A DNA stretch of 64,000 bases from Octopus vulgaris. Taxonomy: Eukaryota. The position numbers and the translations under genes were made by a program. Positions 4,515 through 61,637 of the stretch are shown here, piece after piece. The stretch is from the NCBI GenBank assembly GCA_951406725.2, contig OX597835.1, forward strand, positions 9,548,001 through 9,612,000. The letters run 5' to 3'. Under the pieces are notes generated by a model. The model was not told where the DNA came from, searched no databases, and was given only the letters and a program-made list of their open reading frames with translations. How positions within the stretch are numbered: position 1 is the stretch's first letter; the number at the start of each line of letters is the position of its first letter.

Positions 4515-4808
4515 CGCATATATATATATAAATTAGAAAACCCCCCCACCTTTTATCAATTCAAAATGAACGATTAAATTACACCATCTAGAAAATTACA
4601 TATAATAGAAATATTAAAATTAAAATAACAATAAAATATCAATAATTAAGTAAATTGCAAAAAATTGATATTGTGTGAAATCTGATTTTGTATTTCTACA
4701 TTGAATTTTTCTCCCTGTAATTTTGGATTAATATTCCCTCAAATAATAATTATTATATATATATATAGGTGAGAAAGTTGGTGTGTGAAAGCACGTGGTT
4801 GGATATAT

Positions 4809-5157
4809 AGAGAATAGTAAAAGGTGAAGAAACTACAGAAGGCTTGTTTTATAAGGTAAAAGAATATATTTAAGTTGTTATGTTAGAAGAATGTTATAAA
4901 ATGTTTTCATACAGTGACATAGTTTTTGAAGAAATTACCGGTTTCGTGTTAACTTTTCAAATTTCTCAAGTGTCTTTACCTACATCATGTTATGTCTTCG
5001 TTATGAAGGGCACTTCATAACGAAGACATAACATCTTCAAAAACTATGTCACTGTATGAAAACATTTTATAACATTCTTCTAACATAACAACTTAAATAT
5101 ATTCTTTTACCTTATAAAACAAGCCTTCTGTAGTTTTTTCACTTTTTACTATTCTCT
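4809..5157. mobile_element. Fold-back (palindromic) PLE/retrozyme-like element between microsatellite tracts
   Basis: The arms are reverse complements around a hairpin with loop ggca (5009-5012). The left arm carries an HHR; the right arm lacks that segment. Confidence 0.75.
4926..4969 (-). ncRNA. Minimal type I hammerhead ribozyme, U3-A8 core variant
   Basis: Minus strand: ttgagaaat TTGAAAA gt-taac-ac GAAA ccgg TA atttcttcaa; identical to the copy at 8296-8339. Confidence 0.65.
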
Positions 5158-5170
5158 CTCTCTCTCTCTC

Positions 5171-5223
<53 letters not shown>

Positions 5224-5229
<6 letters not shown>

Positions 5230-5655
5230 GGACTGAACACGAAAAGTGGACAGTCAACATGCTAGATATAGACGTCAAATCGTCATTCTCCACAAAGAGT
5301 ATGTTCTCAAATAAAACTCAGCACAAAACATTATTATTATCCGCAAGGATAAACTGTAATTACAGTTTATCCTTGCGGATAATAATAATCGAAACTGATT
5401 CAGTACATGGGTAATTATTTTATTTCGTATATTTTCATTTGTCTTGTTTAATGCTTTGGCTTTGTGCTGAGTTTTATTTGAGAGCATACTCTTTGTGGAG
5501 AATGGCGATTTGACATCTATGTCTAGCATGTTGACTGTCCACTTTTCGTGTTCAGTCCTTAATTGGTATATAAAAATATTTTAATCTTCGGATTCTTTTT
5601 AATATGCTAGACCACTGGTTTTAATTGACTAATATCAATTTCTACCCTTAATTAA
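5224..5655. mobile_element. (TA)n-embedded fold-back element with about 104-bp inverted arms and a 60-bp perfect palindrome
   Basis: 5224-5327 is the near reverse complement of 5461-5564. 5330-5389 (attattattatccgcaagg...ccttgcggataataataat) is self-complementary. (TA)n lies on both sides. Confidence 0.75.
5369..5412 (+). ncRNA. Degenerate minimal hammerhead-like motif
   Basis: atccttg CGGATAA taataatc GAAA ctgattcag TA catgggt: stem I 6/7 paired, good stem III, two core mismatches, stem II decayed. Confidence 0.4.
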
Positions 5656-8243: not shown

Positions 8244-8495
8244 GTTATGAAGTGCCCTTCATAACGAAGACATAACATGATGTAGGTAAAGACACTTGAG
8301 AAATTTGAAAAGTTAACACGAAACCGGTAATTTCTTCAAAAACTATGTCACTGTATGAAAACATTTTATAACATTCTTCTAACATAACAACTTAAATATA
8401 TTCTTTTACCTTATAAAACAAGCCTTCTGTAGTTTCTTCACCTTTTACTATTCTCTATATATCCAACCACGTGCTTTCACACACCAACTTTCTCA

Positions 8496-8568
<73 letters not shown>

Positions 8569-8745
8569 ATTATTATTTGAGGGAATATTAATCCAAAATT
8601 ACAGGGAGAAAAATTCAATGTAGAAATACAAAATCAGATTTCACACAATATCAATTTTTTGCAATTTACTTAATTATTGATATTTTATTGTTATTTTAAT
8701 TTTAATATTTCTATTATATGTAATTTTCTAGATGGTGTAATTTAA
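8244..8745. repeat. Near-identical inverted duplicate of 4574-5021
   Basis: The reverse complement matches by eye throughout, apart from the length of the internal (TA)n tract. Confidence 0.9.
8296..8339 (+). ncRNA. Minimal type I hammerhead ribozyme, U3-A8 core variant
   Basis: Stem I ttga-gaaat/atttc-t-tcaa, core UUGAAAA (8305-8311), stem II GU-UAAC-AC, GAAA, palindromic stem III ACCGGU, predicted cleavage GUA| after 8329. Confidence 0.65.
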
Positions 8746-9039
8746 ATGTTTACATTGTATTCGATGCATTCAGTTCAATCGTATGAGACTCTCATCTCCA
8801 CTTTGCACGCCTATAATTTCGTTAACTGCACTCAATTCCCAATACTTTCGCCTTCATTCAATCGTTCGCTCGGTTAATTGAGTCACTCTCTACATCACTA
8901 AGACACATGTGCAAGTATTACATTAAATATTTCCTCACTACAAATACAGTTAAATACACAGAGCTGATTTTTCTTTCCTTGGTTAGATTACTTGCCGCAA
9001 GCAAGTGTCCTTTACAGTGGGACGATATTCTTATTCTCA

Positions 9040-9428
9040 GTGGAGGCGCAATGGCCCAGTGGTTAGGGCAGCGGACTCGCGGTCATAGGATCGCGGTTTC
9101 GATTCCCAGACCGGGCGTTGTGAGTGTTTATTGAGCGAAAACACCTAAAGCTCCACGAGGCTCCGGCAGGGGATGGTGGTGATCCCTGCTGTACTCTTTA
9201 ACCACAACTTTCTCTCACTCTTACTTCCTGTTTCTGTTGTACCTGTATTTCAAGGGGCCGGCCTTGTCACTCTCTGTGTCACGCTGAATATCCCCGAGAA
9301 CTACGTTGAGGTTACACGTGTCTGTGGAGTGCTCAGCCACTTATACGTTAATTTCACGAGCAGGCTGTTCCGTTGATTCGGATCAACCGGAACCCACATC
9401 GTCGTAACCGACGGAGTGCTTCGAACCA
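9040..9428 (+). mobile_element. Full-length tRNA(Arg-like)-derived SINE family C with 13-bp TSD
   Basis: tRNA-like head (tggcccagtggtt...ggtttcgattccc); TSD attcttattctca at 9027-9039 and 9429-9441; highly similar copy at 56124-56507. Confidence 0.92.
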
Positions 9429-14054: not shown

Positions 14055-15062
14055 GTGCATGTATGTATGTATGTATGTATGTATTGTGAGAGAGAGAGAG
14101 AGTCCATATATGTCTATATGTAAAATGATAAGCGTATATTTGTGTTTTCTCAGAAAACTTGGATTGAGAACTTTCCGTTATATTTATTGATGTTTTCTTG
14201 TTTTTATTTTGTCATATTTACTTTTTATTTTGTGCTTCTTATTTTCCCTCCTTCTTAAATCTTATATTTTACGTTCGTTTATTGTCAGTATTTATTCTTG
14301 AGCGTGTATCTTCTAACTTTTTGTATTTGTTTGTTACTATATTTTTTTATCTGTTTGCTTCTATATTTTTCACTTGATAAGACACGAATCGTCATTGATA
14401 AGGTAAGCCTAAAATCAATAGATACATGATCGACACATCTTTGAAAATATTTTCCCATAATCCCCGATTTTATCATGGCCGTTCATAGGTGCAAATCTAC
14501 AATTTTACATTTTGTTTTTCGCGAGTGATTATGTAGCTTATTCATGTTCTAATTGTTATTTTACTAATACGAAGAACGATTGTAAAATATTCTCAATTGA
14601 CTGATATATACACTTTTCATTCAGAAACTACAAGCCTAGCTTAACCCAGATGAAGTGATGTTGTGAAGTTGATCTAATCTAGCATGTTACCCGTCCTTAT
14701 TCAATTGTAGCTCGAGACAAAATTATATTTACTCGTGAAACATGAAATCAGGAATGAGAACAGAAATAAACATTTTGTATAAAGTGACATCTCTCTACAT
14801 ATATATTTACCTCTCTCTCACTCTGCATATAGGGAGACAGACAGAGACAGATATACATATATTTATGAAAACAGGCACACACACACACACAAATGCACAA
14901 ACACACTAAAATACTCTCCTTCTCTACCCCACCTTCATGTGCCATGCCTCCACATCACAGCAAAATAGACCTCCATATCCAAGTCAGAGACCACATTATT
15001 TATCTTCGGGAACATACTACAATGTCTTCCCTTTGTCTTCTGCTTTTGCGGTATAATAATTA

Positions 15063-15299
15063 AGGCGGCGAGCTGGCAGAAACGTTTACACGCCGGGCGA
15101 AATGCGCAGCCATATTTCGTCTGCCGTTACGTTCTGAGTTCAAATTCCGCCGAGGTTCACTATGCCTTTCATCCTTTCGGGGTCGATAAATTAAGTACCA
15201 GTTACGCATTGGAGTCGTTGTAATCGACTTAATCCGTTTGTCGGTCCTTGTTTGTCCCCTTTATGTTTAGCTCCTTGTTGGCAGTAAAGAAATAGGTAT
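15063..15299 (+). mobile_element. SINE family B (tRNA-derived, central domain resembling the Meta-SINE domain)
   Basis: aggcggcgagctggcagaaacg...gagttcaaattcc (B box)...gcctttcatcctttcggggtcgataaattaagtaccag; many copies in the window. The Meta-domain assignment is from recall. Confidence 0.88.
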
Positions 15300-28615: not shown

Positions 28616-30165
28616 AAATCGAAAAGTAAGAAATATCAAAGGATGTACACGGGAAATGCATTTTCTTGGTGCTCCTAATAAGGTGCGAAAAAGAGTGGGT
28701 GTATAGCATTTCATGCATGCTTCTTCGTCAGAAAGACTCGAGAGGAAATGTCCAGAGACGGAAATGTCTTGGCAGTAAATGTAGGAGTGCCCAGCAACGA
28801 TCACAGATTAAAGCTCAGTTTCGCTTTCTCATCTTTATTCTAGATTAATGTCGTTCTTCTGCGAGTATTTCAAATATTTCTACGAATGTAATTTGAATAT
28901 TTGTAGACAATTTGATGAGCGAACGGGTGGCGGTTTGATTCAGACCAGTGAAGGTTATTTTATCAAATGAAGACTTTGGGTATTTTTATGTCGTCAGAGT
29001 ACCTTTTCTTGTCCATGGTGCACATTGCGTAAATGATGTAACGTTGCCCTGACATGTGTATGGCCTGATAATGCGACTAATCATTCCCAATCGTCCAATC
29101 AAGCTATCAGATTTGATTTAAACAGTCAACGATCACTTCAGGTGTCTCAATTTTGGTTATGTTCTCTTTTACCTTTACAAGTCGACATGCATTAATATAA
29201 TGGCTTCACTGTCGAAGCGGATTTGAAAAGTAGCGAAAACAAGAATTATATCATAATTGTTTGACCATAAAATGCTTCTTGTATCCGGGGACACATTTTC
29301 TTAGCAACAGCAATTTTATTTTCAATGGAGTATATTCAGTGCTTCCCAACATTTATTACTGGATTATGACCTCAAACACTTTCACGAGAACAAAGGCTTT
29401 GTCCTCCTCTCATTCACCAAAATGGTCTACTTTACTTTCACTCACGTTTGATTTCATGTTTGTAGGCGCAAACCGTTTAATGTTAGAATTGGGATGAAAT
29501 GAAGAGTTGCTTTTGTAGGTTTTGTCCAAGTAGAGTTCTTTCGGGAATATAGTAACTTCTGTCAGGTGTGAACACGCAGCACTATCACATGCATTTTAGG
29601 AGCCAGGAATTTATTTACATTTTCTAACATATTTCGTATAGCTTCTTGTATAGAATAGTGCGACCAACTCGTCCTTGTAACTTCCTGAAGCATGAAACTA
29701 TATCTCTAGATAATATCCTTTTATTAAAGAATACAATATATATTCTATATTGCAGAATATGTGCTTAAAGAAGTATCTTATGTTCCAAAACTCTGTTGAT
29801 TTATGTTAAGATCTTTATTTTCGTGTTCGCTATTAATTTCATATAAAATCATTTCTATAAAGTGTTCGGAATTTTGTTTGCCAGGAGGTAAAATAGTTAA
29901 TAGTGACTTTCTACTCAATGTCTGACCATAGAGCGTGTGAGAAAAATCTTTCTAATATAAAACACGCATGTGGAGAACTAGCGGCGTTACAACTTGACAA
30001 CAGCATTGTTTTTGAATAGGATCCGAGACTTTTACTCCTTGTTTAACTTTCTGACAGGCAATGATGATATCTTTCCCTATAAATTCAATACCGCTATTTA
30101 TGTCTGTATTTTTCTTTACTTCAGTTACGTCAGAGATTTTAAATGAACATCATAAGAAATGATGA

Positions 30166-31366
30166 AAAAGAGATTATATGTTTTCCTTTCGGGACACATT
30201 ATTCATTTCTTAAGCACCATGTTTGAATGACGTATTTACCTGTTACAAGGAAACTGTTGACAAACAGAGGTGTTCGTTTTCTTTTTCTAACAAAGATGTC
30301 AGCGGCCTTTCGGCCTTTTCTTTCTTTTATATTGTATCCTTCTTCCTTCTTATTTATAAAACTAGACATGTTTTGTCATTTGCATAAGATTATTTCGAAT
30401 TCTCCAATTATCTCTTTCATGCCTTCGTTTTCATAACTTGATGGAAATTCCAATTTAGATTAGGTTCAATACAATTATTATAGATTCACCCTCTTAGAAA
30501 TTCACACTCAAAGTATTTACTCGATGTATTTAATGTATTTAAATTGTACTTTCCCAAAGTACTGTCGGCAATTTAATTCAAATTTGCACAAGCTTCTATG
30601 GTTTCTAATAAAGAGCGGAAGACTTCACTTTCGATTACAAATCGTGGCTGCCTGGTTGAGTTTATTTTATTTTGATCTCGTTAAGAAAATCGATGGAGCC
30701 GAATGAAGATATATTTCCCTATAAAGTCAATCCCGCTATTTATGTTTGTAACTTTTTTTTTTTACCTCAGTTACGTCAGAGATTTTAAATGAACATTATA
30801 AGAAATGATGTAAATGAAATTATATGGTTTCCTTTCAGGGCATATTATTCAATTCTTGCTCACGACGTCTGAATGACGTATTGGATGTCAAAATATATAT
30901 CCACATCAGTAAGGATATTTTGCAACAATATGCTGCAGATTGCATTGAGGGTTTTTTGGTGAGTTGTTGCGCGATCCTGTGTAATTTGAATGCACCTTGA
31001 GCCCGGACATTTCGCCTGTTAAGTTATGGAGTGTTCATGTTGTTATTAATTATCTATAATAATTGTTATTAATTATCTATAATTGGAATTTCAATCAAGT
31101 TATGAAAACGAAGGCATGAAAGAGTTAATTGGAGAATTCGAAATAATCTTATGCAAATGACAAAACATGTCTAGTTTTATAAATAAGAAGGGATAAGGAT
31201 ACAATATAAAAGAAAGAAAAGGCCGAAAGGCCGCTGACATCTTTGTTAGAAAAAGAAAACGAACACCTCTGTCAACAGTTTCCTTGTAACAGGTAAATAC
31301 GTCATTCAAACATGGTGCTTAAGAAATGAATAATGTGTCCCGAAAGGAAAACATATAATCTCTTTT
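30166..31366. repeat. Inverted repeat pair of about 300 bp (30166-30485 vs 31052-31366), overlapping an older direct repeat (30066-30238 vs 30708-30882)
   Basis: Direct comparison; also visible as the near-identical 69-aa ORFs at 30227(+) and 31309(-). Confidence 0.9.
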
Positions 31367-32749
31367 ATGGTATTTCTAATTTGGATATAACCAAAAAGAA
31401 TCTTGTAACAATAAGTTGAGATGTGATCACAATTTTTGTTAAATGGGGAAATACATGTAATGAGAAACCTTGGTCACAAAACAGGGGAAAATCTGCAAAT
31501 GGATTTGCATGCGTATCTTTCATGAATATACATTTATCTTTGTTGTAAAAATTCGCTACATTAAATAACTCACCATGACGCCTGCCTAAATACTATTTTG
31601 CAATGGAAAAACAAAACAACCTTTGCATTTTTATATGCAAAATCATTTGCAAATTTGATATATACTCAAAAGTATTCATAAATTTCTATCCTTTTGTTAC
31701 AATATTCTTCTGAATAATCTTTTGAATAGCCTTAAACCTCAACTGTATTCAATATAGCGACATTGTTTTAAAGTATTTAACTATAATACTAAATGATAAG
31801 ACTTCCCCTGTTTCATTATCAATAGTCTGCTAGTGGACAACCCCTTAATTATCAGCTAACATCTTGTTTTAAGTTTTCCCTTACTAAATCTCAGGACATT
31901 GCTTCTAATAAATCTTGATTTTAATGATTATACCATCTAGAATATCTGTCTACTCCCTCAACCCTACCCCCGAACAAATACTGCCCTCTGTTTCTCTCAG
32001 CGTTAAATATACAAGGGATTTGATAAACTAGTCTATAAATTAAAACGGACCCTATGAAAAAACAAAAACATCAGTGAGAGACAGTGTCCCCTTGAAAATT
32101 TTAGTTATGACTATGCTGTTGTAGGTACAACATGTTCTTTGTATATCTTCTTAACCTCTTGGAGATTCTAGGTTTAATTATACTAATGTGTCCATCTGTT
32201 CTAATTCAATTAAATTCTATGTCTTTCTGCAGCTTAAGATTGCTCTACATTTCAAATTGATGTAATGATTGCATTGTTCAATTAAATGGGGTTGCATGAA
32301 ACGCAGTCAAATGGTTGAAACAAATAAATGAATATAAGTATACATATATTTCGTCCCACGCCGGAGCATGCTACAAGTCTATGATGTGTGTCAATGAATG
32401 GATGTCTTGTATAAGAATGTACATAATATACGAATGCATTTGCTTCCGAAGAAGTCAAAAAGAAGACGACAACAACAACAACAACAACAACAACGGCAAC
32501 AGATGGAGAAGATGTTGGAAATGAACATGAAAAAATGTAACTAAAGCCTTAATGAGGAGATATTCAGATGTAAGTCATTGTATATAATGTGTGGAATATA
32601 ATGATACGACGCCATAAGTCTACGCTAGAAATCCCTAGAAGTATGAGGAGATGCCTTCAGGGAACGAAAATTAAATATTCACTCATAGGACATATTTATA
32701 CAGCTAAATCATTAATAAGTATACTACTACACAAATGTAGATCGATAGA

Positions 32750-34144: not shown

Positions 34145-34472
34145 CTTATAAAATAAAGGCAAAAGAAAAAATTCTAATGTCAAATATGCCGAAAATAGAC
34201 AAATTGTCAATAACCATTATAATTTATTACAATTAACATGCGTTTCGAAACAAGCCGATAGAAATTCCTAGAAAATTCCGTTATTACTGTATTGGTCCAA
34301 ATTTCAGAGTTAATTCATAAAAATTTTCTCCTCCTCGGCGATAAATACGTAAGACATAAATAAAATACTTACTCATACCCATGGAAAAAGCAAGCACTAA
34401 GAACTAAGTACCCCAAAATATATCCACAATAGAAAATCTTCAGCACATCTCGAGACACGTGCGATTCGAACT
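34145..34472 (-). mobile_element. Diverged copy of the 464-bp HHR-bearing pLTR/retrozyme-like unit
   Basis: Colinear with about 39717-40036 and ends in (TA)n. Confidence 0.8.
34284..34344 (-). ncRNA. Type I hammerhead motif, diverged (CCGAGGA core)
   Basis: ttatcg CCGAGGA ggag-loop-ctct GAAA tttggaccaa TA cagtaa; stem II covaries relative to the 40303 copy. Confidence 0.55.
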
Positions 34473-34574
34473 ATATATATATATAATACAAAATACAAGG
34501 TAAAAATTATATACTTTGTATTAATTGGTTTTCCACGCTAGCTACTTGATAAATCTTATATAGATTTTATCCTC

Positions 34575-38962: not shown

Positions 38963-39296
38963 ACGAAATTATATATATATATCATATATATATATATATA
39001 TACCACGAAATTATATTTGTGCGCGTAAGCATGATTACGCTCGTATATGAGGGTATGTACCTCAGGGAAATTTCTTCTTTGTTCATTCTGGTTAGTAAGA
39101 CAATATACGCTCACACAGACATTTCTGTATTATGCATCTATCCATCGATCTATCTATATCTATCTTTATATGTGTGTGTGTCTATATGCGTGTGTGGTGG
39201 GTATGCGTGTGTGTATGTGCGTGCGTGAGTGTGTGTATGTGTCTTTGTGTGTGTGTGCGTCTGTGTATTTTATATTAAATCCGAAAAATTCTTCAC

Positions 39297-39339
39297 ACTC
39301 TGCTACTCAAAGTTTCACGTTAGCCTTCGTCGGAGAGTT
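39297..39339 (-). ncRNA. Minimal hammerhead-like motif (CCGACGA core), decayed stems
   Basis: aactct CCGACGA agg-ctaa-cgt GAAA ctttgag TA gcagagt. Confidence 0.45.
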
Positions 39340-39345
39340 GTGATA

Positions 39346-39385
39346 ACTGTCCGAAGAACGATAACGTGAAACTCTGAGTAACTGT
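39346..39385 (+). ncRNA. Minimal type I hammerhead motif (CCGAAGA core, U4C)
   Basis: actgt CCGAAGA acg-ataa-cgt GAAA ctctgag TA actgt; 3-bp stem II, stem III A-ctc-t-gag-U, GUA| site, stem I 4/5 paired. Confidence 0.6.
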
Positions 39386-39666
39386 CGGTGAAGACTTTTT
39401 CGGCTTTAATAAAAGGAATATTACACTGTCATTCGTAACTAAATCCTAAATTTTCCCCTTTTTCCAAATTTATGTGCTCGTTGTTGTTCGAGGCTTTTGT
39501 CGTTAGAACTGGCGTCGTTGATACTGCTACGTGCTGCGCCTTTATTTTGCATATATATATATATATATATATACATATATATACATATATATGTATACAT
39601 ATATGCATATACATATATATACATATTAATGCACACACACATATATTTATTATATTAATATATATG

Positions 39667-39714
<48 letters not shown>

Positions 39715-39838
39715 ATTTACAAGATAAGGGCAAAAGAAAAATTCTAATGCCAAATATGCCGAAACAAAATATTGTCGATAACCATTGTAATTTATGCGTC
39801 TCGAAACAAACCGATAGAAATCTCTAAAAAATTCGTTA

Positions 39839-39899
39839 TTACCGTATTGGTCCAATTTTGGGGTTAATTCATAAGACATTTTCCCCTCTACAGCGGCAA
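39839..39899 (-). ncRNA. Type I hammerhead motif, core-mutated copy
   Basis: ttgccg CTGTAGA gggg-loop-cccc AAAA ttggaccaa TA cggtaa: stem I fully paired, but A6U and G12A changes. Confidence 0.55.
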
Positions 39900-40302
39900 A
39901 CACGCGAGATATAAGTGAAATACTTACTCATACCCATGGAAAAAGCAAGCACCAAGTCCAGAGCAGACCTAAGTACCCCAAATATATCCAAAATAGAAAA
40001 TCTGCGGCACATCTCGAGACACGTGTGATTCGAACTAGAAACTTTCACAGAGTTACAAAATCCGTGAGTGAACACAATTCTATTTATAATTAATGTAGGA
40101 TCAAATTTCTTTCGGGAAAAAATTTTTATCAATGGCCAGCATATCAAAAAATACCTTCAAAGGTTAAATTTATAAATAATTTACAAGATAAGGGCAAAAG
40201 AAAAATTCTAATGCCAAATATGCCGAAACAAAAACTTGTCGATAACCATTGTAATTTATGCGTCTCGAAACAAACCGATAGAAATCTCCCAAAAATTCGT
40301 TA

Positions 40303-40363
40303 TTACAGTATTGGTCCAATTTCGGGGTTAATTCATAAGAAATTTTCCCCTCTTCAGCGGCAA
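40303..40363 (-). ncRNA. Type I hammerhead ribozyme, canonical core
   Basis: ttgccg CTGAAGA gggg-(19 nt)-cccc GAAA ttggaccaa TA| ctgtaa; all core nucleotides present, one stem I mismatch; predicted cleavage between 40309 and 40308. Confidence 0.8.
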
Positions 40364-40423
40364 ATACGGTAATAACGAATTTTTTTAGAGATTTCTATCG
40401 GTTTGTTTCGAGACGCATATATT

Positions 40424-40517
<94 letters not shown>

Positions 40518-40520
<3 letters not shown>

Positions 40521-40735
40521 TGATTTCTTGCTAATAGAGAAAGACCCGATTTCCAACTTAGATCCAAGGCTCATTGATTGGAATTTCATCAACAACGGAG
40601 TGTTTTTGTTTGTATGTATGTATGTATGTATGTATGTATGTATGTATGTATGTATGTATGTATGTATGTGTGTATGTACATGTGCAGATATTTATGCTTT
40701 TGTTATGTATGTATTCTCATGCAAATAGTTGCATA
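40518..40735. repeat. Interspersed repeat; second copy in opposite orientation at about 57770-57967
   Basis: gatttcttgctaatagagaaagacccgatttccaacttagatccaagg... matches the reverse complement of 57865-57935, and the gtgcagat...gtattctc block is also shared. Confidence 0.7.
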
Positions 40736-42765: not shown

Positions 42766-43155
42766 GGTAAGATGCTTACTTCCCAACCACACTGTTCCAG
42801 GTTCAGTCCCACTGCGTTGCACCTTGGGCAAGTGTCTTCTATTATAGCCTCGGTCCGATCAAAGACTTGTGAGCGGATTTGGTAGGTGGAAACTAAAAGA
42901 AACCCGTCGATATATGTGTGAGTGTATTTGTGTGTATGTGTGTCGGTGTGTCCGCCTTCCCCTCCCGCCATCACGTGACAACCTTTGCTAGTGTAGCACA
43001 GCGGTTCGGCAAAAGATAACCGATAGAATACGTACTAAGCTTACAAAGAATAAGTCCTGGGGGCGATTTCTTTGACTAACACCCTTTAAGGTGGTGCCTC
43101 AGCATGGCCGCAGTCAAATTACTGAAACAAGTAAAAGAAGAAAAGGAATAAAAGA
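42766..43155 (+). mobile_element. SINE family A, slightly 5'-truncated
   Basis: ggttcagtcccactgcgttgcaccttgggcaagtgtcttc...cagcatggccgcagtc. Confidence 0.88.
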
Positions 43156-44033: not shown

Positions 44034-44440
44034 AGGAGTGGCTGTGTGGTAAGTAGCTTGCTTACCAACCACATGGTTCCGGGTTCAGTCCCACTGCCTG
44101 GCACCTTCGGCAAATGTCTTCTGCTATAGCCTCGGGCCGACCAAAACCTTGTGAGTGGATTTGGTAGACGGAAACTGAAAGAAGCCCATCGTATATATCT
44201 ATATATATGTATATATGTATGTGTGTGCGTGTTTGTGTGTCTGTATTTGTCCCCTTAGCTTTGCTTCTCAACCGATTCTGGTGTTTTTATGTCCCCGTCA
44301 CTTAGCGGTTCGGCAAAAGGGACCGATAAAATAAGTACTGGGCTTACAAAGAATAAGTCCTGGGGTCGAGTTGCTCGACTAAAGGCGGTGCTCCAGCATG
44401 GCCGCAGTCAAATGACTGAAACAAGTAAAAGAGTAAAAGA

Positions 44441-56123: not shown

Positions 56124-56507
56124 GGAAGCGCTCCGTCGGTTACGACGACGAGGGTTCCGGTTGATCCGAATCAACGGAACAGCCTGCTCGTGAAATTAAC
56201 GTGTAAGTGGCTGAGCACTCCACAAACACGTGCACCCTTAACGTAGTTATCGGGGATATTCAGCGTGACACAGAGCGTGACAAGGCCGGCCCCTTGAAAT
56301 ACAGGTACAACAGAAACAGGAAGTATGAGTGAGAGAAAGTTGTGGTGAAAGAGTACAGCAGGGATCACCACCATCCCCTGCCGGAGCCTCGTGGAGCTTT
56401 AGGTGTTTTCGCTCAATAAACACTCACAACGCCCGGTCTGGGAATCGAAACCGCGATCCTATGACCTCGAGTCCGCTGCCCTAATCACTGGGCCATTGCG
56501 CCTCCAC
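56124..56507 (-). mobile_element. Full-length SINE family C with 13-bp TSD
   Basis: TSD tcatctcctcagt at 56111-56123 and 56508-56520. Confidence 0.92.
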
Positions 56508-57167
56508 TCATCTCCTCAGTACCTTAGCGGCAAAGCTTACTCCGAAAATTAGACATATCTTGAAGTATCAGAGTTCCAAGATGAACACCGGGTAATACGT
56601 ATAATTTGACGCATTAAATATTTATCTTGCTAAACGTTTATCAGCATTGAAGGTTTGAACGGTCTGTTTATGAACGGTCAACTTTGTGTAAGAAAGCTAA
56701 GCTTAAATCTAAGGATATAAAACAGGATTACAACTGAGGGAATGAATTCTGTAAGAAGTGAAACTCTCTTTTCAGAGTTGTCGAAGCACAATCGAATTAT
56801 TGATAAAAAGCTTTAGTGAGGTGCATAAATTGATAATTGATTTATTTCTATGTCCCTTGTCAATTATCATTTATGAACACAATCAATTCCATTATATAAC
56901 AATAAATCTATTTTATCATACCCTGAAGAAACATAAAATTATCATCCGAATTTGAGATGAGAAATCTGGAAATAACTTCTCTAGGGTAGAAAGTCACGTG
57001 TTGTGTTTTTCTTTCATATTTTACAATAAAACAACTCCCCTGTTCACTCTCATAACACAGACCAATGCTCACAATGTTGCACACTCATAATCGCACATAT
57101 ACACACACGCCATGCATGCGTAAATACACACACACACATACATACATATATATACAGAAATGCATAC

Positions 57168-57447: not shown

Positions 57448-57598
57448 GTGGAGGCGCAATGGCCCAGTGGTTAGGGCAGCGGATTCGCGGTCGTAGGATC
57501 GCGGTTTCGATTCCCAGACCGGGCGTTGTGAGTGTTTATTGAGTGAAAACACCTAAAAGCTCCACGAGGCTCCGGCAGGGGATGGTGGTGATCCCTGC
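57448..57598 (+). mobile_element. SINE family C, 3'-truncated
   Basis: Matches 9040-9190, then breaks at atccctgc. Confidence 0.88.
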
Positions 57599-57762
57599 AG
57601 TGGTCTCAATACAGTGCCCTGTGGAACACCACTAACCATTTGTGTTTGTTTTTCTTTTTAGTTGGCTCCATTGGCCACTACTGCCTGTCTTCTATCTTTC
57701 AGAAAGTCATGTAACCATTCTCCAAGTTTTCCAGCTATGCCGAGATCATGCAGTTTGTGGCA
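57599..57762 (-). mobile_element. CR1-group LINE reverse transcriptase fragment
   Basis: CHKLHDLGIAGKLGEWLHDFLKDRRQAVVANG, then a stop/frameshift, then TQMVSGVPQGTVLRPL (the SGVPQGxVLGP motif). Confidence 0.85.
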
Positions 57763-60289: not shown

Positions 60290-61394
60290 GTGAGTCGCGT
60301 AAAAGTCCATAAGTCCGGAAAAAGATTCGCATATACACACATACACACACAAACACATATACATATATTATGTAACTGCCCAACACCAGCTCAGGTGTTT
60401 CTAGCTCGTTAACACATGTTCAGAGGTGAAGCTGTTCTTTCAGAAATATTGCGCAATATTTTATATATAAACCGTTCTTATAAAAACATATTAGAAATGC
60501 AAAAAAAAAAAAAAAAAAAGAAATATGAAAATAAAAAGCCTCCTTTTGATAACGTATTTACCTAATTTAACACTCTAAAAGAAGACTATTATTGATTTTT
60601 ATATATTGGATGTTATAATAGAAATATCTTGCGAGAGAACAATAACAGACATCTATGTGGAGAGAATGAGCGAATGAGAGAGAGAGGGTGAGAAAGAGAA
60701 AATCACACAGAAGAGGAGAATACATGATTAATATCTTTATCTCTTGAGTAAATAGTTTAACCGTGAAATGAACCATATGAGATACCTTCTCATTGCTTAC
60801 TCTGAGTCATTCTCTCTTCCTTCTATTGTTTGCCGTCTAGATATTTCTGTTATTTCATACATTCTTATAAAAAAATCAATAAAAGCATTCATCCCTTATA
60901 TAGTAAATTAGGTAAATCTGTTAGTATTTCATATCACATCCAATATTATGCATTCATATTTTAACTTGCATTATTCACCTGTTGCTTTTTTTCTTCAGTG
61001 ACTTACATATATTCTATGAAACATTTTTGTAAAAGTTAGCTTGACCTTAGAATATGTGTTAAAAAACAACAACAACAACGCTATAAATGACAGACGTCGC
61101 CATCTGCAATAAATGTAAGACTTCCCATTCACCTCCTGTTCGCCGATTATTGCGGCGAGTATCTCATTGGGTTTAGGACTGACCACAAAACTAACACTGA
61201 CGCTAATCAGGAAACAACAAATCCTTGCATCATGCTCTCTGATTCTATCTTTGGCAGGTTTTATACTTCGGGTTTTCTGCCACCGCAAAGCAAAAAGCCC
61301 TCAGGGGTTTTCTACCCAGCACCACTAGAGTGAATAACGCATCCTCTTGTTCTCTGGGTACAGTTTTGGAATTGCCCTGCATTCTAGAAATATC

Positions 61395-61621
61395 TATTTC
61401 TTTATTACCCACAAGGGGCTAAACATAGAGGGGACAAACAAGGACAGACATAGGTATTAAGTCGATTACATCGACCCCAGTGCGTAACTGGTACTTAATT
61501 TATCGACCCCGAAAGGATGAAAGGCAAAGTCGACCTCGGCGGAATTTGAACTCACAACGTAACGCAGACGAAATACCGCTAAGCATTTCGCCCGGCGTGC
61601 TAACGTTTCTGCCAGCTCGCC
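61395..61621 (-). mobile_element. SINE family B with 9-bp TSD
   Basis: agaaatatc at 61386-61394 and 61622-61630. Confidence 0.92.
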
Positions 61622-61637
61622 AGAAATATCACAAATA

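Follow-up and report, generated by a model that had tools for sequence, protein, structure and literature searches.

The locus described here raises the question of why a tandem repeat that carries hammerhead ribozymes turns back on itself across a predicted self-cleavage site. An earlier note on this DNA, a stretch of 64,000 nt from an Octopus vulgaris contig that was analysed as a whole (the window), had suggested that the inversion may record template switching at the end of a self-cleaved RNA. Our analysis indicates a single insertion, by now slightly decayed, of a non-coding tandem repeat that is abundant and carries a predicted type I hammerhead. In our judgement, which is not a computed value, pairing between the arms is a considerably better explanation of the junction than cleavage.

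The features of the locus are given below in window positions; unit position 1 corresponds to 39712.

34146-34473, minus strand: older one-armed copy, about 80% alike, from about unit 6 to 326, between TA-rich runs
39551-39711, no strand: AT-rich microsatellite, left target flank (TRF period-2 array at 39551-39714)
39712-40175, minus strand: unit 1, complete 464-nt repeat (repeat alignment, and joint 40175>39712 in public runs)
39834-39904, minus strand: hammerhead 1, type I, predicted inactive, predicted cut between 39845 and 39844 (core and helix matching)
39845-40308, minus strand: predicted cut-to-cut monomer of 464 nt
40176-40368, minus strand: unit 2, partial, unit positions 1-193, stopping at the 5' edge of the hammerhead domain
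40298-40368, minus strand: hammerhead 2, type I, predicted cut between 40309 and 40308 (core and helix matching)
40363-40368, no strand: 6-nt junction overlap, unit 188-193 forward and unit 137-132 reversed, spanning the predicted cut
40363-40428, plus strand in RNA sense: inverted arm of 66 nt, unit positions 137 to 73
40427-40518, no strand: (AT)46 microsatellite, right target flank (tandem-repeat listing)

The earlier note had described a 464-nt unit repeated at 39712 and 40176, and the alignment bears this out: the direct repeats 39712-39904 and 40176-40368 are spaced by 464 nt and identical at 184 of 193 letters. The locus therefore holds 1.4 head-to-tail units, one of 464 nt and a second of only 193 nt. 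The inverted arm differs from unit 1 by one mismatch and one extra A and from unit 2 by four mismatches and one gap, and the repeat matches lie beyond chance (blastn E values of 6e-86 and 1e-25). The sequence inverts just past stem I of the second hammerhead, as had been claimed, and the arm opens with the letters quoted in that claim, which cross the scissile bond. The microhomology proposed to have joined the arms is also seen, as the overlap at 40363-40368 that includes the cut position. Because the RNA sense of unit 1 is minus, 39712 lies on the RNA 3' side and was likely the first start of reverse transcription. The element is surrounded by microsatellite-rich, animal-type DNA.

The unit has a G+C content of 0.34 and is non-coding, with stops breaking all six frames. 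Its three longest stop-free stretches gave no Pfam match above the cut-off and two weak matches below it, and a reading frame for RT or the GIY-YIG endonuclease is absent from the element. Folded as a circle, the 464-nt unit is predicted to be more stable than its shuffles (z of -2.9, 60 shuffles); the linear cut-to-cut monomer has a predicted energy of -114.5 kcal/mol (z of -2.66), and none of 100 shuffles was equally stable.

The two hammerheads lie exactly 464 nt apart on the minus strand, in agreement with the earlier note, with C3 at 39893 and 40357 and the predicted cuts between unit positions 134 and 133. Each comprises a stem I of 6 bp with a 3-bp extension, the core, a 4-bp stem II, GAAA and the triplet AUA; stem III is short and palindromic, with a predicted energy of 0.0 kcal/mol alone and -10.3 kcal/mol as a dimer. 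Hammerhead 1 has intact helices and a core altered at A6U (39890) and G12A (39859), while hammerhead 2 has an intact core and a mismatch in the second pair of stem I (40307). A strict scan for type I hammerheads on both strands of the 64-kb window returned a single match, hammerhead 2, and a relaxed scan that allowed one core mismatch and required at least five stem I pairs returned none, as expected for damaged copies. Rfam gave no hammerhead at gathering level in the window, nor at E values up to 10 in 39600-40600, so that the identification of a ribozyme is based on matches to the core and the helices; sub-threshold Rfam matches, including microsatellite-driven miRNA ones, were all rejected. 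Over the three copies in the window, 49 of the 51 cells of the hammerhead helices are paired, against 25-51% in slid controls, and one change is two-sided. Covariation among these three sequences did not rise above that of shuffles (167 of 500).

In the predicted fold of a minus-strand transcript, the arm and unit 2 form a long hairpin that covers the cut, and hammerhead 2 is accordingly modelled as sequestered by the inversion hairpin. Both ribozymes were likely intact at the time of insertion. Given the two core mutations of hammerhead 1 and the stem I mismatch and hairpin at hammerhead 2, the locus in its present form is predicted not to release a 464-nt RNA.

The repeat family was assessed from contigs of public sequencing runs. 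Part of the stretch is contained in 20 of the 24 listed runs, which belong to 10 studies under four organism labels, and none of them contains half of the stretch's words. A search with unit 1 in four runs (three organism labels) returned 4,386, 4,413, 3,567 and 2,535 contigs. In each of these runs the joint with the most support was the head-to-tail one, 40175>39712, with 4, 8, 8 and 7 contigs. A further search extended the family to a fourth organism label. Summed depths come near a million, against depths of 30-60 for single contigs, a figure that is not a copy number. These results suggest that the family is very abundant. Its copies are many and dispersed, as seen from the second insertion in the window and from thousands of variant contigs per run; that second copy, at 34146-34473, starts near the same unit position as the element at 39712 and reads through the cut site. 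An additional run (X11), which is RNA only by guess and may be DNA, gave 110 contigs over all 28 bins and was excluded from the counts. None of the runs on record as containing part of the stretch is listed as RNA, which speaks neither for nor against expression. In metagenome and in viral contigs, the ribozyme pattern had no match.

The majority letters of the family restore A6 (39890) and G12 (39859) of hammerhead 1, and the stem I pairing letter at 40307 accounts for more than 99% of depth. The majority letter at 39901 restores, in unit 1, the six-letter match seen at the junction, which is hence built into the unit. Among variants at 1% or more, none is listed for 40309-40334 or 40337-40368, and where variants are common, in stem I (39896-39897) and in stem II (39862), pairing is preserved. 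By these letters, the family is predicted to carry an intact ribozyme.

The earlier note had further proposed that cleavage at successive hammerheads would release a 464-nt unit RNA. For the family, this stands as likely: the cut-to-cut RNA corresponds to the published model of non-LTR retrozymes (PMC7229834), the tandem joint occurs in all four runs, and the hammerheads are intact by majority letters. For this locus, release was rejected, both hammerheads being damaged. The junction of a circle would have the same sequence as tandem DNA.

Several further observations were made on the family and the window. The opposite-strand joint 40052/40161 occurs in three of the four runs at depths of 50-456, above the depth of single contigs, and this inverted junction may have been amplified as a subfamily. 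Skips of 117-125 nt that end at 40117-40118 (within 39992-40118) are accompanied in three runs by numerous loose ends before 40116-40117, a pattern suggestive of subfamilies, shorter or divergent, in which the unit is only partly represented. On the minus strand, 39927-39824 opens with a perfect 5' splice-site hexamer (39927-39922) and closes with a T-rich AG ending at 39824; these signals, noted by eye, would frame the whole of hammerhead 1 in a 104-nt intron and may be due to chance, and a skip matching the putative intron was absent among the joints listed in the public runs. A Penelope intron has been described as ending at helix I, in the text of PMC4209133.

Elsewhere in the window, 39270-39414, some 300 nt upstream, is an inverted repeat of another kind, head-to-head, degenerate and about 80% alike, in which each arm has, by eye, a hammerhead-like motif with a U4C-type core; neither arm ends at the cut, both stopping some 10 nt 5' of the core. 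Another tandem-plus-inverted repeat occupies 30060-31380, with direct copies at 30060 and 30702 and nearly identical inverted copies at 30151-30455 and 31080-31380. It includes a GC stem and GAAA adjoining a CTGA motif at about 31220-31240, possibly a rearranged hammerhead. Nested inverted repeats lie at 4558-5579 and 8244-8761 (4768-5021 is identical to 8497-8244 over 254 nt, and 5330-5389 is a perfect 60-nt palindrome); these represent either a young two-armed element or an assembly feature. A young dispersed repeat has copies that are 96% alike at 9039-9422, 56125-56508 and 57448-57601. Two abundant short interspersed families of 150-400 nt have many window copies each, among them 42766-43145, 44034-44439, 15061-15299 and 61387-61623, and one of the families is often split by microsatellites.

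As to how the insertion was made, we consider it fairly probable that a non-LTR retrozyme entered a (TA)n target with the help of a Penelope-type enzyme acting in trans, and that its arms were joined by pairing at the six-letter match built into the unit. A nicked (TA)n strand would have primed reverse transcription near unit position 1, and the cDNA would have run 657 nt through both cut sites. Since the long arm crosses two cut sites, its template must have been an uncut multimer, a circle or a jumped monomer. The cDNA would then have stopped at about unit 193, where the hammerhead domain has its 5' edge and transcription may start, and its last six bases could have annealed to their sole perfect complement at unit 132-137. 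They may have paired in this step with a second cDNA, for which the other target strand served as primer at unit 73, or with their own strand by fold-back. Repair would have fixed the junction, after which the three segments would each have gained 2-3% private changes that disabled both ribozymes. A fixed start at unit 73 is inferred, as is the enzyme that acted in trans.

Considered as first-strand cDNA, each arm starts at a (TA)n end, and the arms meet at their RNA 5' sides. A start near unit 1 recurs in the 34146 copy and in loose ends from the public runs that have TA-repeat letters before the start of the unit, while unit 72-73 is a boundary in few contigs only. The locus shows the PLE-type footprint of a partial tandem, an adjacent inverted 5'-truncated copy and a (TA)n target, and the earlier statement that partial tandems with inverted ends are typical of PLE insertions agrees with the published descriptions (PMC8557442, PMC3846280). 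Within the text of those sources, PLE insertions comprise a partial tandem, an inverted 5'-truncated copy and an extension on one end (PMC8557442), and their head-to-head junctions show overlaps or palindromes, with 5' joins through microhomology (PMC3846280). A purified PLE protein is reported to cut and extend both strands at AT-rich DNA from two internal starts (PMC11167929). When the cDNA strand over hammerhead 1 was folded as DNA, its predicted stability did not exceed that of shuffles (z of -0.75), which gives no support for fold-back; the copy used, hammerhead 1, has a private change in the six-letter match.

The junction itself is well matched to pairing. A forward arm that ends at unit 193 has a single six-letter complement in the unit, at 132-137, and because this only perfect complement of its last six bases spans the cut, pairing alone predicts the junction seen here. 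On this reading, the junction lies on the cut site because the ribozyme leader is complementary to the cut region. However, only about 2% of the inverted matches of at least 4-5 nt within the unit touch the cut position (unit 133), so that purely random pairing makes the junction unlikely unless unit 193 was a favoured stop.

That the tandem and the arm arose in a single insertion can be judged from their letters. Both units and the arm carry G at unit 76, where A makes up 78-98% of depth across runs, and private changes amount to 5 of 193 letters in unit 1, 4 of 193 in unit 2 and 2 of 66 in the arm. An origin of the tandem or inversion in misassembly or in a read folded back on itself is very improbable, and we rejected it, even though the window's own inversion junction is absent among the joints listed in public runs, microsatellites lie on both flanks and such structures are described as troubling short-read assembly (PMC8557442). 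A folded-back read would copy its neighbour; the arm differs from neighbouring unit 2 by the four letters and the gap noted above and carries the family majority at three of the differing letters, which argues against such a read, and the units differ from each other at 9 of 193 places and are linked by a joint found in every one of the four runs. It is also quite unlikely, if slightly less so, that two separate events took place, in which a short second copy was inserted or repaired in, reversed, at the end of an existing tandem. A PLE endonuclease is described as able to nick AT-rich DNA in its own repeat (PMC11167929), and the arm resembles unit 1 more than it does the adjoining unit 2; but the minority letter at unit 76 is common to all three segments, whose private divergence is similar, no TA remnant is found at the junction, and the layout is the usual form of a single insertion.

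A more serious rival, though one we still hold to be unlikely, is that the hammerhead cut ended the short arm: cDNA primed at unit 73 would have run off the template at unit 133 and been joined through 2 nt. The cut lies inside the 6-nt overlap, which so few inverted matches touch, and the family ribozyme is intact by majority letters. For an arm that ends at the cut, the best match in the unit is 3 nt long; of its 16 CG partners, only one has the four extra matching letters, so this rival requires a 1-in-16 coincidence. Seven distinct opposite-strand joints are listed in the public runs (five among the 15 rows shown from the full-unit search, whose listing had five further rows, and two among five from another search); six of them rest on a single contig in one run, and they are given without polarity. 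One of the seven lies at the cut (P of 0.13-0.19 by chance, with the window junction excluded). This joint, 39844/39893 (run X2, one contig), is independent of the window; one of its ends coincides with the base that directly follows the cut, and its partner is a best 3-nt match for such an end. The partner is stem I, so that pairing explains this joint too. Four of the five full-unit joints have exactly one end at or below unit 133 (P of 0.08), but short arms give the same. An eighth inversion joint, read by eye from a loose end at about unit 119/220, lies away from the cut. Among the top loose ends listed, none falls at the cut, which excludes a dominant hotspot and is compatible with a tenfold excess; in run X4, the weakest loose-end entry shown is 4 of 402 partly aligned contigs, and the private change at 40307 weakens this test at hammerhead 2. 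A modest enrichment of breakpoints at the cut would be compatible with these counts. Against run-off at the cut, moreover, neither the long arm nor the 34146 copy stops at the cut sites that it meets. In the text of PMC11167929 the purified PLE protein used uncut RNA in vitro without needing cleavage, and for that element RNA reads ending at the hammerhead cut were absent. The earlier reading of the inversion as the record of a self-cleaved RNA end is thus not shown by the locus, given that pairing alone predicts the junction and that one of the seven listed joints lies at the cut.

Joining by pairing at the built-in match draws attention to unit 193, the outermost base of the extended stem I and the point at which the long arm stops. 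If unit 193 is a start site, the junction follows by pairing alone. Joint 40234/40368 also ends at unit 193, but at the edge of the reference; joints with an end in unit 182-193 number two of the seven listed (P of 0.046, post hoc) and one of five in the full-unit search (P of 0.23). By analogy, unit 193 may be a transcription start. Transcription of newt satellite 2, likewise a tandem hammerhead repeat, starts about 47 nt before the hammerhead cut; in the present unit, a start placed at the ribozyme's 5' edge would fall at 193. The newt repeat is described as having an snRNA-type promoter (PMC2220036).

In a test RNA assembled from the undamaged halves of both hammerheads, the six letters of the built-in match are predicted to form a competing helix over the scissile bond, present in about 25% of the ensemble and less stable than the stem I fold by 0.9 kcal/mol. 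As modelled, this leader helix may compete with stem I and hold the ribozyme off as a switch. It is then conceivable, although we think it rather doubtful, that both arms ended at natural RNA 5' ends, the long arm at the start (193) of an uncut transcript and the short arm at the cut (133) of a processed one. If true, inversion junctions would be a genomic record of hammerhead cleavage in the germline, and one Penelope-type complex would use cut and uncut RNA together, with the leader helix over the scissile bond as the switch.

In LINE-1 twin priming, a 5' inversion is joined by microhomology after priming from both target strands. The element described here differs in having neither a poly(A) tail nor a definable target duplication, and its arms overlap in unit coordinates and so cannot be neighbouring parts of one monomer, unlike those of LINE-1 twin priming. 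With EN+ PLEs and pseudo-LTRs, it shares the partial tandem and the adjacent inverted 5'-truncated copy (PMC8557442, PMC3846280), and with EN+ PLEs also a head-to-head junction with overlap, an extension at one end and a (TA)n target (PMC8557442, PMC3846280, PMC4209133). Opposite-strand hammerhead pairs 100-700 bp apart have already been noted in Schistosoma (PMC8557442, PMC3846280, PMC4209133). EN+ PLE hammerheads are described as minimal, whereas those here are canonical, with a 6-bp helix I and a 4-bp helix II; EN+ PLEs encode RT and GIY-YIG, for which the element has no frame, and on this ground we rejected the possibility that it is the end of an autonomous PLE. The one-sided extension of EN+ PLEs is given as 30-40 nt, and the offset between the arm starts here is longer, at 72 nt, a point against our preferred explanation.

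In PAc (Poseidon, Anolis; Frangieh et al. 2024, PMC11167929), both target strands are cut and extended at an AT-rich target, and two internal starts lie downstream of the hammerhead; as reported, these features would be sufficient for the layout seen here. PAc is an autonomous element whose ORF begins in stem II (PMC11167929), whereas the majority of the family described here has no such start (39877). A PAc-like ORF start in loop II was rejected, since the Met of copy 1 is a private change (39877). The one reconstituted PLE needed no cut (PMC11167929), which bears on whether PLE and retrozyme hammerheads cleave the transposition template in vivo. We found no paper that maps inversion breakpoints against hammerhead cuts in a search of mostly open-access literature that covered main texts. 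Since the hammerhead has its own inverted matches at the cut, a breakpoint there is evidence of cleavage only against a null matched for microhomology. Arm ends are numerous in an abundant family whose insertions have two arms, so that the question can be approached from an assembly alone.

The closest likeness is to the metazoan non-LTR retrozymes, in which the unit is likewise tandem and non-coding, with a single canonical type I hammerhead and a low G+C (34% here); abundance and a compact predicted fold are also shared (PMC7229834, 10.64898/2026.07.22.740005). The unit of 464 nt exceeds the 170-400 nt range of Cervera and de la Pena 2020 (PMC7229834) and falls inside the 51-972 bp of Li, Clavereau and Pollet 2026 (10.64898/2026.07.22.740005). 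Active retrozymes in the latter account have two consecutive units with complete, intact hammerheads, which this copy lacks (10.64898/2026.07.22.740005). Mobilisation of retrozymes by PLEs from multimers or circles has been proposed (PMC7229834), as have the release of a unit-length RNA, its circularisation and its reverse transcription over more than one unit by PLEs (PMC4209133); inverted arms are not discussed in the main text of the 2020 paper, where the word 'inverted' has no match (PMC7229834). With its canonical type I hammerhead, head-to-tail units, small non-coding unit of low G+C and many dispersed copies, the element is a decayed member of the animal non-LTR retrozymes, a described class, and neither an active copy nor an autonomous PLE.
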